A DNA stretch of 64,000 bases from Microgenomates group bacterium Gr01-1014_5 (lineage in GTDB: Bacteria; Patescibacteriota; Microgenomatia; UBA8517; UBA10165), in the NCBI GenBank assembly GCA_007376395.1, contig VMGE01000003.1, forward strand, positions 26,057 to 90,056, written 5' to 3'. Positions 1,354 through 64,000 of this stretch are shown one piece after another. The notes under the pieces were generated by a model, which saw only the letters and a list, made by a program, of their open reading frames with translations, did not search any database and had not been told where the DNA came from. Positions within the stretch are counted from its first letter, which is position 1; every line of letters begins with the position of its first letter. The position numbers and the translations under genes were made by a program.

Positions 1354-3582
1354 TCACAATCTTGCGTTTTTCAGCCTCAAAGAGTTGGCCACAACCGAAA
1401 TAGAGCTTGCGGCCATAGCAAAAGAGGCAAGCGCTGGACTTAACAGCCAACCGGTAAGGGGATATAAAACTCCCATGGCAACAGGAATTAAAATAATATT
1501 GTAGCCAAACGCCCAAAAAAGATTTTGGCGGATTATACCCATTGTCTTTTTTGACAAATCAACTGCCCGGGCTACTGAGCGCAAATCACGATTTATCAGT
1601 GTTATGTTTCCTGCCTCAATTGCCACATCAGTTCCGGATCCCATGGCAATTCCGACGTCAGAAGCGGCAAGAGCCGGGGCGTCATTTATCCCATCCCCGA
1701 CCATCGCCACCTTTTTACCCTCTGCCTGGATTTTTCTCACTTCGGCTTCTTTATCTTGAGGTAACACTTCTGCTAATACTCTTTTTATCCCTACTTGCCC
1801 GGCGATTGCTTTGGCAGTTCGCGCGTTGTCACCGGTAATCATGACAGTTTCAATTCCCATCTTTTGCAGAGCCAAAACTCCGTCTTTGGCAGTATCTTTA
1901 ACGGTATCGGCAACTGCAACCAGTCCTATAAGTTTACCGTCAACAGCAAGCATCATTACTGTTTTCCCAGCACTCTCCAATCCTACAAGGTGAGACCTTG
2001 TAGGCTCAATATCTATCTTCTCTTTTTCCATCATCTTTCTGTTTCCCAAAAACACTTTCTGCTTACCCACCATTCCCTCCACCCCATGCCCGGGAATTGC
2101 TTTAAACCCTGTAACTTTGTATAAGGCGACCCCTTGTTCATCTGCTTTTTTCACAATCGCCTCAGCCAGAGAATGCTCTGAACCTTTTTCCAAAGATGCA
2201 GCCAGTTGTAGCAGTTTTTCTTTTGTTACTTTTGCCTTGTCACTTGTTACTATATCCGTGACGATTGGTTTTCCGTTTGTCAACGTCCCTGTTTTGTCAA
2301 AAATAACGACATTGATTTTATTCGCTATTTCCAAACTCTCAGCGTCTTTAATTAAAATTCCATGTTCCGCCCCGCGTCCTGTACCAACCATAATGGCAGT
2401 AGGCGTTGCCAATCCCATGGCGCAAGGACAAGCAATAATCAAAACCGCGATACTGTTTAGCATGGCAAATAAGAACGCGCTTTGCTGTCCAAAAACATAC
2501 CAGCTAACAAACGTGGCTATGGCCAGCATGATTACAACCGGCACAAAATAAGAAGAGATTAAGTCTGCCAAGCGCTGGATTGGAGCCTTTGAGCCCTGAG
2601 CTTCCTCAACCAGTTTTATAATTTGGGCGAGTAAGGTTTCTTGTCCAACTTTTTCTGCTTTATAAAGAAAAGAGCCGGACTTATTCATTGTCGCCCCAAT
2701 AACCTTATCTCCTCTGGTTTTATCAACAGGAATACTCTCTCCGGTAACCATCGACTCGTCAATCGACGATTCTCCTTCGGTAATTACCCCGTCTACGGGA
2801 ATCTTTTCACCCGGCCGGACACGGATTATATCCCCTATCTGTACTTGGTCAATAGAGATGTCAATTTCTTTACCCGCTCTCACAACCCGAGCAGTTTTTG
2901 CCTGCAAACCAATTAATTTTTTAATTGCCTCGCTCGTTCCCGCCTTTGCTTTTGCTTCAAAATATCGCCCCAAGAGAATTAATCCAATAATTACCGCCGT
3001 CACATCAAAGTAAGGCATTGGTTCAATTCCGGCTTGAGAGACCATTTGAGGAAAAAAAGTTACAACAGTAGAATAGATAAATGCCACAGATGTACCCAGA
3101 GCTACTAAGGTGTCCATATTGGCCGTTCTGTGGCGCAAAGCGGGAATTGTTGCCCGGTAAAACGTGAGTCCTGCCCAAAATTGAACAGGCAGGGCAAGGA
3201 GAAACTGGACAATAAAGTCTTGCAAAAAACTAGGCGAGGTCTGAATCAGTCCCGGGAAACTACCCCAGACAATCGGCGCCGCAAGCCCGAGACTTACCAG
3301 CACTTTTGTTCTTAGATCCTTTAGTTCACGAGTTTTTTGTTCTTTCTCTTCATCCAACGTCTGTTCTTGATGTCCCACCATTGCTTTGTAGCCAACATTA
3401 GCAACGGCAGAAGCCAGCTTTTCGTCAGTTACTTGTCCGCCGCAAACCACAGTAGCTTTACCGGTTGCAAGATTGACGCTTGCGCGCTCCACGCCGGGAA
3501 CTTTTCCGAGAGATTTCTCCAAAATACGCACACAAGAGGCACAATGCATTCCTTGAATAGAAAAGGTTTTAGTTTGTGCCAT
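1354..3582 (-). CDS. copA: Copper-translocating P1B-type ATPase. The likely start is MAQTKTF at 3582; the ORF track extends to 3627.
   Basis: N-terminal HMA domain GMHCASC. CPC transmembrane motif [18 protein letters not shown] phosphorylation site. GDGINDAP hinge. Confidence 0.92.
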
Positions 3583-31827: not shown

Positions 31828-31990
31828 ATCTCTATATTATCATACGTATTACGTATGTCAAGCGATAAAAAGGCTACGCTTATTTCGAGCTTGCGAGAAA
31901 CAAGGTTCGCTTATACCAGATTGAAGGTAGATTGTTTATTAAACTCGCATTCGATTGGAAAATTAAGCAATTCAGGCTTATAATATTCTT

Positions 31991-56294: not shown

Positions 56295-59200
56295 CTAGCA
56301 TTCTGAGTGTCCACAGCCGTAGCATTTTGAACAACCTTCTTCGTGAACAAATGCGGCTGCGCCGCACATCGGACAAAGGTCGGCTGCGGTTTTTTTAAAG
56401 TCAGCAGCTGGGGCCGGCGTGGGGTCAGGGTTGTGCGCCGCCATGACAGCCCCAGCTTGCAAATTAGGTGTCGATTCAGAGAAGCCATTTTTCTCTGAAA
56501 CCGAGTCAGACTCGGTGGTGTGTTTCCCGTTCAGCCCGAAATGGCGCGAAAGCGCGAGGGCGATGGCGTCTGGAACCGAGCGCACCCGATTAGGTCCAAA
56601 CCCAATTGAGTTGCGTCCTCCAATTCCCGATAACTGGTGAATAATCTCGTGTACTTTACCTAAAGGCTTACTGTTGCCGCGAATCCTAAAAGTCATCGAG
56701 AGTAATCTGCCAAACGCTTCTGCCATGGCGTTAACGTCAGAACCAGCTTTGCCGATATTGATAAAAACTTCGACCGGGTTGCCGGTAGGGTCTGTATTGA
56801 TCGTTATAAACGCACTGCCCAGAGGAGTCGCCATGCGGTAGGTTACGCCTTCTAACTTTTCCGGTCTTTGCACTAAAAGCTCATGTGATTCAACCGCCGC
56901 AGCCGGCGTAAGAGTAAGTTGCTGAGTTAAACCTCCCTCTTCTGCCGTAGCTTGAGCTTCGGTTTTTACAGGTTCCTCTTTGGAAAGCACACCGGGACGA
57001 CTGCCGTCTCTAAAGAAAGTTATCCCTTTGCATCCCAAGTCGTAAGCCATCATGTAAAGTTTTTTGACGTCGTCTACTGTATATTCATTTGGCGCATTCA
57101 CGGTTTTAGAGATTGAGGCGTCAACATAACGCTGAACAGCCGCCTGTACTTTAACGTGGTCTTCAGGAATTAGGTCACTCGATGAAACAAAATAATTTGG
57201 AATCTCTTCTCCTGGGTGCGCTTCTTTCCACGCTTGGAATAACGGGTGATAAATGTTGTGCTCCCCAATTCTGTCGCGTCGGACAAATGAAAACTCATAT
57301 ACCGGCTCAATACCCGAAGTTACCTCTGACATCAGAGAAGTTGAACCAGTTGGCGCCTGCATTAAAAGAACCGAGTTTCTGATCCCCTGTTTTTTAATCA
57401 TTGCCTGGATTCTTTCTGGTAATTGGCGGATAAATAATCCTTGAGCATATTTTTCGCGGTCAAATTTAGGGAAAGATCCTTTTTCGCGGCCAATTTCTGA
57501 AGACTCCTCAAAGGCCGCGTCACGGATTAATTTATAGATTTTCTCGACTACTTCAATTGATTCGTCAGACCCGTAACGAATCCCCATTTTAATTAATGCG
57601 TCTCCCAGCCCCATGGTTCCAAGACCAATTCTTCTTTCCCCGTCCAATTGCGTCTTGCGGATTCCGTCGAAGATATAGATATCTCCATCAATAACATTGT
57701 CTAAAAACCGCGTCGCAACTTTAGCGTGTTCTTCCAAGGATTTGTAATCCATAACACCTGTTTCATTGACAAAAACAGCCAAGTTTAAAGAGCCTAAGTT
57801 GCAAACTCCGTACGGCGGCAACGGTTCCTCACCGCAATTTGAAATAATAAGACCGTTAGCTGCAAACTGGTGAATTTCTGCTACGGTAATATCAAACACC
57901 TCTTCTACCCTATCTTTCTCTAAGCTCTCAAATGTTGCTTCAAAAGTATTTTTATAAGGCCCTTTTTTGTAAAGCGCCAAACTTGTACGTAATTTTTCCT
58001 GCTTTTCTTCTTGCAAAAAGCCAATAAATGCGGCAAAGCTGGCAACTCCCTCTCCAGAAATTACTAAATCGTGATACGCTTGGGTTGGATAAAGTTTTTT
58101 ACCTCCTTTACCGTCGGGCATCATCCGGTCCTGAGCCAGCCTGCGGTTTTTATAAATTCGGCTAACAATTCCAAAGTTTATTAATAATCTCTGGACATTT
58201 ACCAAAAGCTCTTCGCTCACCGATGTTAGTCTTACGCTTACTCCTTTTTCCGGGGTTCCTGCAACGTGTCCGTCACTTGAGAAAATACCCTGCAAAAATC
58301 CTCTCTGCAGGGCCTCTGACCCGCCAAAAATAGCGTCCGGAACGATAAGTTTCGCGCCGTGAGCAAAGCCCAAAGACTGAGCAAGTTTTAATAATCTTTC
58401 TGATTTAACAACTGCCTTGTTTTCTTTTTGAACATAGATTGGAGAAACTGTATATGCTCTGCCATTAACTCCCGTGTCCCCTACCATTGCTTGTACTGCC
58501 GCAGCAAACTGAGGTGCAAGTTCTGTTTTTTCTTGCTGATAAAAGAAAAGTTCCGCTCTTTCTTTTTTTACCGAACCGTCACCTACAAGCCAGCCCCAAA
58601 CTCTTCCTTCTTCAACCGTACCCACACTTCCAAAAGCGCCATATTTATTAAGTAAAATTTTATCACCTGTTTTAAGTTTTCCTGCTTCTACTTTTCCGGC
58701 AGGAGTATAAACTTTATGGTCCTGGGTTAGTCGAAGGCGATAACCTTCTTTAGTTTGCAATTTATATACTTGTTTAACTCCGGTTAGAAAAGGTTGCGAA
58801 GAAAGATACTCTTTGCCGCCGACCACTGCTTTGAAAGGCTTGCCTGCCTCATAAAGCTTACGCATCGGGAAAATTCCTTGGCTTGTGGTAATCAGCGTGT
58901 CTCCTGTAACACAAGGATTAGTGCAATTCAGATAATTGAAGTAATAGTTGGAAGAAAGCTTGTTTGTCCTTTCCATAAAATGAAGTCCAGGCTCTGCAGA
59001 TTGCCAAGCCGCCTCACAAATAAGATCCCAGAGCTCGCGAGCTTTAATAGTTTTGTAAATTTTTACCTTACCGCCTGATTTAATCCAGTTATCAAGAATG
59101 CCGTCCCATGCCGTGTCATAAAGCGGGTCATCTAAATCCGGAAAGAGTAATGGCCAATCTTCGTCTTTTTTAACTGCCTCCATTAAACGGTCAGAAACAC

Positions 59201-60020
59201 AAATGGATAAATTTGCCCCCTTAATTCGGGCAAGATCGCGCTTGACTGTTATAAATTCTTCAATATCCGGATGCCAATCCCAAAGCATGAGCATAAGGGC
59301 GCCGCGGCGCGTTCCGCCTTGCTGAATAACGTCATGGGTTGCCACAGAATACATTTCCGCCCAATTCATAGGTCCTGAAGAAAATCCGTTAACCTTTTTA
59401 ACCCGGGAACCACCTGGGCGTAGAGAAGAAAGGTTAACCCCTACCCCACCGCCGCGTGCCATGATATCGATCATCTCAGTTAGGTTTTCCATAATTCCGT
59501 GACGAGAGTCGCCGGGTGAAGGTAGAACATAGCAGTTGTAATAGGTCACCTGATAACCAGTACCGGCTCCAGACAAAATTCTTCCACCGGGAACAAATTT
59601 AAATTCTTCCATCGCCTGATAAAACTTATCTTCCCATTCTTTTTGTTTTTCATTTGTCTTTTCAACACGGGCAATAGCGCGTGCAACTCTGCGCCACATT
59701 TGTTCCGGGTGTTGTTCAAGAGGGTTGCCTAGTTCGTCTTTTAACGAATAGCGGTCAAGAAAAACTTTTTGACTAACACCTTCCAGCACAGTTCCGTTTG
59801 TTAAAGGTTCGGGGTCAACTCTAATCAAGGTTGGGTTAAGAAGATTTGGGGTTTCTGTCTTAAATTTAACTCCTGCTTGTCTGGCCAGTTCGAGACGGGC
59901 GTGTCCATTACCATTTACAACATGGCCATTGCTGTGACCATTAGAATGCCCGTTAGACTGACGGCCTACGCGGCTTTTATTCTTTTTCTTAAGCTCTGTT
60001 GTGATTGCAGTTTGTGCCAT
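56295..60020 (-). CDS. nrdJ: Class II (adenosylcobalamin-dependent) ribonucleotide reductase NrdJ containing an intein. Likely start is MAQTAI at 60020.
   Basis: Active site ...LNCTNP-[intein]-CGEEP..., a C-terminal zinc ribbon CPMCG...CSKCYGCGHSEC, and an N-terminal His/Asn/Gly low-complexity tract. Confidence 0.9.
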   Translation of the reverse strand: MAQTAITTELKKKNKSRVGRQSNGHSNGHSNGHVVNGNGHARLELARQAGVKFKTETPNLLNPTLIRVDPEPLTNGTVLEGVSQKVFLDRYSLKDELGNPLEQHPEQMWRRVARAIARVEKTNEKQKEWEDKFYQAMEEFKFVPGGRILSGAGTGYQVTYYNCYVLPSPGDSRHGIMENLTEMIDIMARGGGVGVNLSSLRPGGSRVKKVNGFSSGPMNWAEMYSVATHDVIQQGGTRRGALMLMLWDWHPDIEEFITVKRDLARIKGANLSICVSDRLMEAVKKDEDWPLLFPDLDDPLYDTAWDGILDNWIKSGGKVKIYKTIKARELWDLICEAAWQSAEPGLHFMERTNKLSSNYYFNYLNCTNPCVTGDTLITTSQGIFPMRKLYEAGKPFKAVVGGKEYLSSQPFLTGVKQVYKLQTKEGYRLRLTQDHKVYTPAGKVEAGKLKTGDKILLNKYGAFGSVGTVEEGRVWGWLVGDGSVKKERAELFFYQQEKTELAPQFAAAVQAMVGDTGVNGRAYTVSPIYVQKENKAVVKSERLLKLAQSLGFAHGAKLIVPDAIFGGSEALQRGFLQGIFSSDGHVAGTPEKGVSVRLTSVSEELLVNVQRLLINFGIVSRIYKNRRLAQDRMMPDGKGGKKLYPTQAYHDLVISGEGVASFAAFIGFLQEEKQEKLRTSLALYKKGPYKNTFEATFESLEKDRVEEVFDITVAEIHQFAANGLIISNCGEEPLPPYGVCNLGSLNLAVFVNETGVMDYKSLEEHAKVATRFLDNVIDGDIYIFDGIRKTQLDGERRIGLGTMGLGDALIKMGIRYGSDESIEVVEKIYKLIRDAAFEESSEIGREKGSFPKFDREKYAQGLFIRQLPERIQAMIKKQGIRNSVLLMQAPTGSTSLMSEVTSGIEPVYEFSFVRRDRIGEHNIYHPLFQAWKEAHPGEEIPNYFVSSSDLIPEDHVKVQAAVQRYVDASISKTVNAPNEYTVDDVKKLYMMAYDLGCKGITFFRDGSRPGVLSKEEPVKTEAQATAEEGGLTQQLTLTPAAAVESHELLVQRPEKLEGVTYRMATPLGSAFITINTDPTGNPVEVFINIGKAGSDVNAMAEAFGRLLSMTFRIRGNSKPLGKVHEIIHQLSGIGGRNSIGFGPNRVRSVPDAIALALSRHFGLNGKHTTESDSVSEKNGFSESTPNLQAGAVMAAHNPDPTPAPAADFKKTAADLCPMCGAAAFVHEEGCSKCYGCGHSEC
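57837..58913 (-). mobile_element. Intein (359 aa) with a double LAGLIDADG homing-endonuclease domain at the NrdJ catalytic Cys
   Basis: Starts CVTGDTLITT and ends GLIISN followed by +1 CGEEP. Contains WGWLVGDGSV and FLQGIFSSDGHV. Confidence 0.8.
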
Positions 60021-60259
60021 ACAAAAACTCGAGGATCGAGAAATCTCTTCGTCATATTCTAATAACACATGATATGTAGTCAACTGGTAACTTCTGTATC
60101 AAATAGCTTCATTTATACGGCTAGGCTGAGTAGAAACAGCTTTAAAAAACTTTAGAAAAAATGGCCGCTAAACCGTGTTTTTTCTTCACCTTAAAAATTA
60201 GGGGTTAAAAAAGAAGCAAGAAAATACCCAAACATTAACTTACTGAAGTATTTTTTGAC

Positions 60260-62462: not shown

Positions 62463-62861
62463 TCAGCTTACCCGCAAAGCGGGTAATATTTCAATAACGC
62501 GCTTTCTGTAACTCAGTTTAACATCAAAATGATCAAAGAAGCCCTTAGTGCCTAAAATCCCTTGGCTAACATCAACCGTATCTACAAAAAGCGCCTTAAT
62601 TTTGTAACTTTTTCCCGCCACTTTAATTATCAGTGCTCCCCATTTGCCATTTACCAGCTCACTGCCTATACCTTTGATAGTTCTACTTTTAGAGGACAAC
62701 CCAACACTAAGTATCTTCGCTGTTTGTGTATTAAAAACACAACAATCAGATCCTGAATCTATCAAAGCAGAGCCTAGTATGAATTTTTGTCGAGATTTTA
62801 AAATAATAGGGATTACTGGCCTGCCAAGCTGTGAAGTTACTCTTCGATAAGTGAAGATCAT
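62463..62861 (-). CDS. Retropepsin-like (clan AA) aspartic protease domain protein
   Basis: ALIDSGSD matches the D-S/T-G-S/A active-site motif; about 130 aa. Confidence 0.65.
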   Translation of the reverse strand: MIFTYRRVTSQLGRPVIPIILKSRQKFILGSALIDSGSDCCVFNTQTAKILSVGLSSKSRTIKGIGSELVNGKWGALIIKVAGKSYKIKALFVDTVDVSQGILGTKGFFDHFDVKLSYRKRVIEILPALRVS

Positions 62862-63079
62862 TTAACCAAATGGAAACCACCAACAAAAGGTATAATCTCT
62901 CTTGGTATCCGATCTACGAGCGGGTGTTCATATCCCTTCTTTGCGGCTCTATCAAGCACCTCTTGAAGTGTCTTCCCAGAGGCAACAACGACTGGCACTG
63001 TTTGGTCAGTGTCAGGGTCAACTGCGACCCACTTCCCTTTATAGTTTTTATAAACCTTTGTCCAGTCAGCAGCTTTCAT
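62858..63079 (-). CDS. Small hypothetical protein, translationally coupled (ATGA) to the retropepsin-like gene
   Basis: ORF track; 4-nt overlap. Confidence 0.45.
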   Translation of the reverse strand: MKAADWTKVYKNYKGKWVAVDPDTDQTVPVVVASGKTLQEVLDRAAKKGYEHPLVDRIPREIIPFVGGFHLVK

Positions 63080-63087
63080 ACTTTTAT

Positions 63088-63190
63088 TTTATCACGTAGT
63101 GACAAACTTGTTTATCACGTAGTGACAAACTTGTTTATCACGTAGTGACAAACTTGTTTATCACGTAGTGACAAACTTGTTTATCACAAA
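63088..63190. repeat. Tandem array of 4 perfect copies plus 1 degenerate copy of a 23-bp unit TTTATCACGTAGTGACAAACTTG (iteron-like)
   Basis: Seen directly in sequence in the divergent intergenic region between 62858..63079 (minus) and the PBP gene (plus). Each unit contains TCAC..GTGA. Confidence 0.85.
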
Positions 63191-63272
63191 CAAAGTTGAC
63201 AAGCGTGCTAATATAGTCCTTTGTAAACTGGGAACGCCAACCAGGTAACTCCAAGTCTGGTAAAATATATTC

Positions 63273-64000
63273 ATGATGCAAAGTTTGACTAATGCCGCAA
63301 GACGTTTTTTTGGTCTTTTAGAAAAGCCCAGAGAGTATATTTTCCGAATTCCAGGATTACGCAGATTGCCTGAGAGGGCTCAGCGCGTTGTATATTTTTC
63401 CCTATCTCCCGCAATAATCTTGCTCTGGCTCTTACTCTATCTTTATTGGGGTCTACCCTTTCCTAATCAGATCACCTCTGAATTAAGAAATCCTGTTTCC
63501 ACTCAACTCTTAGACCGTAACGGTAAATTAATCTATGAAATTTTTGAGGAAAAGCGGCGCTCTCCTATTAAACTTGAAGACCTGCCGCCTTATGTTGCCC
63601 AGGCAACAATCGCGATTGAAGATAAAGACTTTTATAATCATTACGGCCTCTCCCTAACCGGAATTTTGCGCGCATTCTTCAAAACCACTACCGGCCAACA
63701 ACTACAAGGAGGGTCAACCATTACCCAACAACTAGTTAAAACCACACTTCTGTCCCCTGAACGAACTTTACGCCGCAAAATAAGAGAGGTTACTTTAACT
63801 TTAGTTATTGAAATTATTTATTCTAAAGACCGCATTTTGGAGATGTATTTAAATAACATTCCCTATGGCGGAACAGCCTGGGGAATAGAGGCTGCGGCCC
63901 AAGCTTATTTTGATAAACCTGCACGCGAGCTGACTCTTTCTGAAGCCTCTTTGCTTGCAGGTCTGCCGCAGCGTCCAACTTCATACTCCCCATTCGGAAC
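63273..64000 (+). CDS. Penicillin-binding protein 1A-type peptidoglycan glycosyltransferase (GT51). 5' part only; continues beyond the window.
   Basis: My translation from the ATG at 63273 gives an N-terminal TM helix, then EDKDFYNHYG and GGSTITQQL GT51 motifs. It is absent from the ORF track because it has no stop. Confidence 0.85.
   Translation, partial: MMQSLTNAARRFFGLLEKPREYIFRIPGLRRLPERAQRVVYFSLSPAIILLWLLLYLYWGLPFPNQITSELRNPVSTQLLDRNGKLIYEIFEEKRRSPIKLEDLPPYVAQATIAIEDKDFYNHYGLSLTGILRAFFKTTTGQQLQGGSTITQQLVKTTLLSPERTLRRKIREVTLTLVIEIIYSKDRILEMYLNNIPYGGTAWGIEAAAQAYFDKPARELTLSEASLLAGLPQRPTSYSPFG

Follow-up and report, generated by a model that had tools for sequence, protein, structure and literature searches.

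A tandem 23-bp repeat at the predicted promoter of a DUF5678 operon in an uncultured Microgenomates bacterium: probable minisatellite, candidate operator

When identical DNA units stand head to tail between two divergent genes, do they mark sites at which a protein acts, or do they record a recent expansion of the DNA itself? This question is raised by a stretch of 64,000 nucleotides (hereafter the window) from an uncultured groundwater Microgenomates bacterium of the Candidate Phyla Radiation (CPR), in which a perfect 23-bp repeat separates a small operon from a gene for a class A penicillin-binding protein (PBP1A). A first-pass annotation had placed the repeat in front of the PBP1A gene and had left a choice between very recent expansion and an array kept by selection for protein binding, such as transcription-factor sites or an iteron-type element. 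The evidence is taken up here in three parts: which promoter the array belongs to, how it arose, and whether any protein might bind it.

The array and the predicted promoter that it overlaps

Tandem Repeats Finder (TRF) reports the array at 63088-63187 with a period of 23, 4.3 copies, 100% matches, no indels and a score of 200, the runner-up array in the 64-kb window scoring only 56 (Table 1). The unit reads TTTATCACGTAGTGACAAACTTG on the plus strand and CAAGTTTGTCACTACGTGATAAA on the operon's minus strand, and exact matches begin at 63088, 63111, 63134 and 63157. No further copy of TTTATCACGTAGTGACAAACTTG was found on either strand of the 64-kb window at up to three mismatches, and none of 100 shuffled controls held any match to the 23-mer. 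The fifth copy, which is the most distant from the DUF5678 gene, opens with the 8-bp unit start and then degenerates through 63198; it reads TTTATCAC-AA-ACAAAGTTG, as against TTTATCAC-GTAGTG-ACAAACTTG in a full unit, and is without the right half of the dyad. Since three other assemblies that span the repeat each carry at least two perfect units followed by the degenerate copy, the repeat is no artefact of a single assembly.

Table 1. Positions of the repeat, the flanking genes and the predicted promoter elements in the window
Feature	Position	Strand	Basis or remark
Third operon gene, 163 aa	61963-62454	-	Weak HEPN/RNase LS-like matches, E=1.7e-4, below cut-off
Retropepsin-like gene, 132 aa, D-S-G motif	62463..62861	-	Asp_protease_2, E=1.2e-3, below Pfam cut-off
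DUF5678 gene, 73 aa, first in operon	62858..63079	-	PF18929, E=1.4e-8
Extended -10 TGATAAAAT of the DUF5678 operon	63086..63094	-	Promoter scan; homologous loci; recurrence in the window
Four perfect 23-bp units, head to tail	63088..63179		TRF and exact matching
Dyad TCAC-GTA-GTGA of unit 1	63092..63102		Extended form TTTnTCAC-N3-GTGAnAAA
Degenerate fifth copy, 19 bp	63180..63198		Read from the sequence; aligned with the single-copy promoter of L007
TTGACAAGCGTGCTAATATAGT, putative hrcA-type promoter relic with right arm of a CIRCE operator	63196..63217	+	Comparison; outside the repeat
PBP1A extended -10 TGGTAAAAT	63258..63266	+	6 nt (ATATTC) before ATG 63273
PBP1A (class A penicillin-binding protein) gene	start 63273	+	Transgly, E=1.7e-58

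Every unit is built around a dyad that in its wider form reads TTTaTCAC-GTA-GTGAcAAA and in degenerate notation TTTRTCACNNNGTGAYAAA. The junction from one unit to the next adds a second near-dyad, GTGACAAAC-TT-GTTTATCAC, so that a unit and its reverse complement are nearly the same sequence. This dyad was not found outside the array within the 64-kb window. Much of the earlier description was thereby borne out: TRF and exact matching recovered the four perfect head-to-tail units, the degenerate fifth unit is real when the sequence is read through 63180-63198, each unit holds TCAC-GTA-GTGA, which is absent elsewhere in the window, and the open reading frames and Pfam matches agree with the neighbours it had named (a retropepsin-like gene paired with a 73-aa gene, and a cell-wall synthase gene).

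The assignment to PBP1A did not survive. A promoter scan of the minus strand returned TAAACA-17-TAAAAT with a preceding TG; its last base is 63086, which leaves 6 nt to the ATG at 63079, and the gene-proximal unit on that strand runs ...GTTTGTCACTACGTGATAAAAT-AAAAGT-ATG. The final T of the hexamer is one of the two most conserved positions of the -10 element in sigma-70 promoters. Only the gene-proximal unit supplies it, as TAAAAT, the internal units reading TAAACA; TGATAAAAT is thus completed by this copy alone and is represented in the internal copies by TGATAAACA. By this layout the array would overlap the core promoter of the DUF5678 operon, with the unit corresponding to positions -30 to -8. 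The predicted PBP1A start point follows 86 bp after the array end, and the PBP1A extended -10 begins 71 bp past that end, leaving the PBP1A promoter without overlap. The dyad of unit 1, centred on 63097, falls at -18 relative to the predicted start point of the operon, where it reads TTTGTCAC-TAC-GTGATAAA on the operon strand and overlaps the TG of the extended -10; the remaining centres (63120, 63143 and 63166) fall at -41, -64 and -87.

Homologous loci point to the same promoter. We collected 38 distinct loci and aligned the DNA before their conserved start codons, and in about 28/38 a TGnTAnnnT stops 6-10 nt short of the ATG, most commonly as TGGTAAAAT with 6 nt; in most of them an alternative in-frame start upstream of the aligned ATG is absent. 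The layout recurs within the window, where there are 40 TGnTAnWAT motifs. At 9 sites, 10 start codons of ORFs of at least 60 aa follow such a motif within 4-11 nt, whereas random placing would give 1.4; a spacing of 6 nt is again the most frequent. Putative leaderless starts, with the motif 4-10 nt ahead of the start codon, include 7323(+), 30231(-), 31827(-), 34068(-), 35713(-), 42430(+), 63079(-) and 63273(+). The extended -10 starts are without a Shine-Dalgarno sequence, similar upstream regions occur in L006-L047, and no consistent -35 was seen among the extended -10 promoters of the window. Because the extended -10 lies only 6 nt before the ATG, we infer that the DUF5678 mRNA has no leader, its first nucleotide being the A of the ATG (63079) or a base beside it, and the wider pattern suggests that many leaderless mRNAs arise from extended -10 promoters in this Microgenomates genome and its relatives. 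A literature search on leaderless mRNA in Patescibacteria returned nothing useful.

Another promoter of this kind deserves mention in its own right. Ahead of a 91-aa gene (ATG 31827, minus strand; window 31830-31880), a near-perfect palindrome, CATACGTA-A-TACGTATG, abuts the extended -10 TGATAATAT, and a TTGACA lies just upstream of the palindrome. The palindrome looks like an operator and is positioned in the same way as the dyad of the array.

Between the array and PBP1A lies one more promoter-like sequence, TTGACA...TATAGT (TTGACAAGCGTGCTAATATAGT), which we considered as the PBP1A promoter and set aside: its spacer is 10 nt, PBP1A has its own TGGTAAAAT, and comparison with other loci suggests a relic of an hrcA/CIRCE control region. 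In L009/L010/L011/L024, L013 and L020, DUF5678 and hrcA(-grpE) point away from each other, and these hrcA loci carry the full CIRCE, TTAGCAGTC-N9-TAGTGCTAA. The L009 sequence (about 2921-3000) reads TTGACAAGAA[TTAGCAGTCGTGGTAGATTA]GTGCTAATATG, compared to TTGACAAGC-GTGCTAATATAG in the window, and hrcA in L009 has the same extended -10 layout before its start codon. No hrcA homologue was found within the 64-kb window. This comparison points to an ancestral divergent hrcA/DUF5678 arrangement that would have been rearranged later.

Copy number and origin of the repeat

The identical 73-aa protein is encoded on five contigs, which outside the array show no mismatches over up to 4.5 kb and a single gap. 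Across these contigs the number of units differs. Two full units and the degenerate copy are present on a 101-kb contig of a k139 assembly (L001, ERZ27284378) and on an 801-bp contig of a k119 assembly (L003, ERZ27284375), three units on a 584-bp contig of a second k119 assembly (L004, ERZ27284376) and four in the window, while a k=31 contig from SRR8863434 (L002) breaks inside the repeat. The 2-, 3- and 4-unit alleles have identical flanks and the same sequence from the ATG to approximately -39. The array is probably unstable. A variable or collapsed copy number in other assemblies had been put forward at the outset as evidence against a selected array; as far as the assemblies show, the number does vary between two, three and four, with collapse as the alternative account. 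The variation could accordingly be real or could reflect assembler collapse, and a true count above four is conceivable.

Under that alternative the array would be stable, with a fixed number of at least four units, and the 2- and 3-unit versions would be de Bruijn collapses of short reads. Two of the contigs concerned are very short (L003 and L004, 801 and 584 bp, both k119), which suggests low coverage, and L002 (k=31) simply breaks at the repeat. By our reasoning, the shortest walks through the de Bruijn cycle at k=39 and k=59 would give periodic stretches of 54 and 77 bp, as seen in the 2- and 3-unit versions, and both k values are among the default k steps of MEGAHIT. Short-read errors at promoter repeats are also documented (PMC12817950). 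The 101-kb k139 contig argues against collapse: if the reads were 150 bp, 139-mers should span a 100-bp array, yet this contig has two units. We consider a stable array quite unlikely, and in any case it would touch the polymorphism only, since the nature of the array would be unaffected and the relatives would still be without it.

In none of the 38 homologues did TRF detect a comparable array in the 400 bp upstream, which makes the expansion strain-specific. Without its four units the window would read ...TATATTAGCACGCTTGTCAACTTTGTTTGTGATAAAATAAAAGTATG, and this sequence aligns over its full length with the single-copy promoter of L007, TATATTAGCACTCGTTGTCAAACTAATGTGGTAAAATAAAAGTATG; L007 is syntenic, shares 84% protein identity and has a PBP1A homologue on the other side. 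L008 (73% protein identity) carries a single dyad-bearing unit, GTTTGTCACTGCGTGATAGAAT-TGAGGT-ATG, at -28 to -7, which is 20/22 identical to the gene-proximal unit of the window, the coding DNA being 69% identical. Because L008 has this one copy at the same place, the dyad-bearing unit appears to have been single and promoter-proximal before it was multiplied. As a separate observation, in the closest homologue, L006 (86%), the DNA upstream of DUF5678 (1-100) consists of G+C-rich, hairpin-forming repeats, GCTTCGGAGGGATTCCGCTCCCGACGAAGC... GGGCGTAAGCCCGGGGG; it is unlike the intergenic DNA of the window, and the contig ends there.

These alignments suggest a route to the present array. In the one-unit state the octamer GTGATAAA would have stood twice, 23 bp apart, at the end of the degenerate copy and in the -10 region, and slippage or unequal exchange between the two octamers would have given the first 23-bp duplication. 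Later slippage among identical units could then change their number while the copies stayed identical. The transcription start would remain unchanged throughout, and the added units would be upstream copies of a possibly old operator dyad. We therefore favour, as the probable reading, a young, strain-specific minisatellite that arose by tandem duplication of the -30 to -8 piece of the core promoter, and the array as such is probably without selected function. Perfect identity can also be maintained by continual expansion and contraction, and this weakens the label 'young'. In addition, the dyad stands at an operator's position and its core is kept in L008, so its multiplication may have consequences open to selection. 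Of the two initial readings, the evidence favours recent expansion over a selected array; an iteron-type element is unsupported, given that Rep, DnaA boxes and conservation are all missing.

Read as a minisatellite, the array has close counterparts. In M. tuberculosis, the number of tandem repeats in the dop, lpdA, efpA and glpD2 promoters changes within isogenic populations; the variation is ascribed to slippage or recombination, and short reads misreport the number (PMC12817950). The Microgenomates array likewise repeats a promoter segment head to tail and may differ in copy number between otherwise identical genomes, as its assemblies do. It differs from dop, where the unit is 57 bp (PMC12817950), in that its 23-bp unit stops inside the -10 hexamer, so that its copies do not multiply complete promoters, and in its host, an uncultured Microgenomates (CPR) bacterium. 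Contingency repeats of Haemophilus and Neisseria have 1-7-bp units and alter -35/-10 spacing, reading frame or 5' UTR (PMC12721329). The present array resembles such loci as a mutable intergenic repeat between divergent genes with the potential for reversible expression change; it departs from them in that its alleles (at least two units) share the core promoter from about -39 to +1 and in its predicted leaderless mRNA. Phase variation through spacer length was rejected on the same grounds, the alleles being identical from the ATG to about -39 and the 23-bp unit being upstream of the -10.

Plasmid biology offers a different reading, in which the repeats would be replication-origin iterons, or would form a partition centromere, and serve as sites for a Rep- or ParR-type protein. 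Plasmid iterons and certain type II centromeres typically have a period of about 22-23 bp, and four to five direct repeats of that period directly upstream of a small operon fit the pattern. Against this, the context is one of chromosomal housekeeping, with DUF5678, retropepsin-like, HEPN-like and PBP1A genes and a ribonucleotide reductase nearby, and conserved iteron sets do not share the perfect identity and apparently variable number seen here. No Rep, ParA or ParM gene lies near the array, the L001 flank adding only the remainder of PBP1A and a 98-aa ORF. No TTATCCACA-like DnaA box, with one mismatch allowed, was found beyond 55247, the nearest being about 8 kb from the array. The GC content of the last 2 kb (0.418) is typical of the window, with no AT-rich unwinding element; the cumulative GC skew shows no turn near the array end of the window; and no similarity was found to 72,556 plasmids or 50,697 phages. 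The likeness to plasmid iterons thus extends to four to five direct repeats of about 22 bp, and stops short of an initiator gene, DnaA boxes, an unwinding region, conservation and plasmid similarity, in a chromosomal setting. An iteron or origin was rejected on Rep, DnaA boxes, GC skew, conservation and plasmid/phage similarity despite its fitting size, and we regard it as barely conceivable.

Two structural candidates were also tried. A structured RNA was rejected: there is no Rfam match at E<=1 in 62800-63500, and the array lies upstream of both predicted transcription starts. Strong hairpin or cruciform potential is unsupported, the single-stranded DNA fold of -17.3 kcal/mol (z=-1.67) being unexceptional, with 11/200 shuffles folding as well.

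The DUF5678 cassette and a candidate operator

Any functional reading must take account of the operon behind the array. The DUF5678 and retropepsin-like genes overlap by 4 bp and are translationally coupled, and the retropepsin-like gene directly follows the DUF5678 gene on its 3' side in 34/38 homologous loci. The neighbours of this pair vary by genome and include PBP1A, hrcA-grpE and, in L008, a BrnT/BrnA pair. The pair (about 70 plus 130 aa) apparently forms a conserved, mobile cassette in CPR and other bacteria, and its changing neighbours resemble the behaviour of toxin-antitoxin-like modules. PADLOC returned only a weak match, PDC-M08B (E=4.9e-4), for the protease-like protein, and literature searches found nothing relevant on DUF5678 and nothing useful on retropepsin-like toxin-antitoxin pairs. 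Beside the pair, the 163-aa HEPN-like gene was seen only in the closest relatives, L006 (812-1342) and L007 (2822-2971), and because of this confinement it appears to be an add-on to the two-gene cassette. Elsewhere in the window we noted a 1262-aa ribonucleotide reductase-like ORF (56295-60083, minus strand) that appears from its translation to hold an intein-like insertion, running from about ...CTNPCVTGDTLI... to ...NGLIISNCGEE....

Pfam searches of the operon proteins returned solely DUF5678, the weak Asp_protease_2 match and the weak HEPN match, and no DNA-binding domain of the RHH, HTH, AbrB or Phd/YefM type. An AlphaFold (AF2) model of DUF5678, built with 119 homologues and with a pLDDT of 82.7, shows a helix, two strands, a helix and a strand. 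Neither solved structures (best E=2) nor viral predicted structures (best E=0.25) gave a significant match to the model, and a PDB sequence search with DUF5678 gave no match. The proposal that DUF5678 is a recognisable DNA-binding protein is therefore unsupported by fold, PDB or Pfam. Its C-terminal tail, IPKxILPxVGG (residues ~58-73; window 62858-62900, minus strand), is a feature of separate interest: it is conserved across the 119 homologues and forms a low-confidence extended peptide in the model, and its role towards the partner protease might be that of a docking, substrate or inhibitor peptide.

Against this background we weighed whether the repeat is a working operator array, with a dimeric repressor bound to the dyad TTTGTCAC-N3-GTGATAAA. 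The repressor would be encoded by the operon and autoregulate it in the manner of toxin-antitoxin systems, or else be an unlinked factor. An increase from one to four sites (-18, -41, -64 and -87) would then give stronger or cooperative repression, and changes in copy number would tune expression heritably and reversibly, as at a contingency locus. The position of the dyad is that of a classic operator, centred on -18 over the TG of the extended -10, and its core is 20/22 identical in L008 despite coding DNA identity of 69%. The operon is a compact, overlapping and mobile two-gene cassette with varying neighbours that include BrnT/BrnA, there are apparent 2-, 3- and 4-copy alleles, and a palindrome also adjoins the extended -10 of another promoter of putative leaderless type in the window (31827, minus strand).

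Other observations count against this reading. In L008, 9/22 conserved bases belong to the -10 element, and the rest match at 12/13, which by our own calculation gives P~0.05 against the 69% background. The dyad is absent from L006 and L007 (86% and 84%) and from 36 other homologous promoters, there is no additional copy of it within 64 kb, and at a spacing of 23 bp successive sites lie on different faces of the helix. Nor is a binder evident, the searches with the DUF5678 fold, in the PDB and for HTH, RHH and AbrB domains all being without a significant match. The first-pass annotation had proposed a search for isolated copies, and its yield was sparse: a scan of viral contigs with the dyad core gave 0 matches, the plasmid and phage collections likewise yielded none, the window itself holds none, and among 47 related loci the single solitary copy is that of the orthologous L008 promoter.

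Comparison with established multi-site operators leads to a similar balance. Examples are the four hipBA operators, the WATCACW heptads of the omega repressor and the 4 x 20-bp repeats bound by ParR of pSK41, and sites of these types are conserved, non-identical and bound by an RHH or HTH protein encoded in the operon. The array shares with such toxin-antitoxin and plasmid-maintenance operators the placing of dyads or repeats over the promoter of a few small, tightly packed genes, and its ATCAC/GTGAC cores are omega-like. In contrast to them, its copies are perfect and confined to one strain, and no operon protein has a known DNA-binding fold. The ATCAC likeness to the omega heptads covers merely 5 bp, and the centres lie 8 bp apart in the array as opposed to contiguous 7-bp heptads.

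Taken on its parts, the operator reading is graded as follows. That the single dyad is a real operator is a serious possibility, though somewhat short of probable; that the repeat is a working operator array is doubtful, and a function of the array as an array is unlikely. The fullest version, a copy-number-variable operator array that reversibly tunes the DUF5678/retropepsin-like cassette through DUF5678 itself as the binder, with an undescribed DNA-binding fold, we hold to be improbable. The transcription-factor site proposed at first may thus hold for the unit, given its operator position and its sharing with L008, and falls away for the array as such. Our preferred reading remains the minisatellite, within which the multiplied unit may contain an older operator.

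Meaning for the host and its relatives

Judged by its sequence, the feature is a further example of a promoter tandem repeat or VNTR. As a minisatellite it is of little importance in itself. It might be used to mark strains of this Microgenomates population, and it cautions that repeats of this kind are misreported by short-read assemblies. If the dyad is a real operator, natural alleles of one to four copies would provide a ready dose series for regulation of the cassette. More useful is what the context of the repeat provides: it defines a conserved, mobile DUF5678/retropepsin-like pair, and it yields comparative evidence for leaderless transcription of many genes in this lineage, including PBP1A and hrcA, with the extended -10 at 6-10 nt from the start codon.
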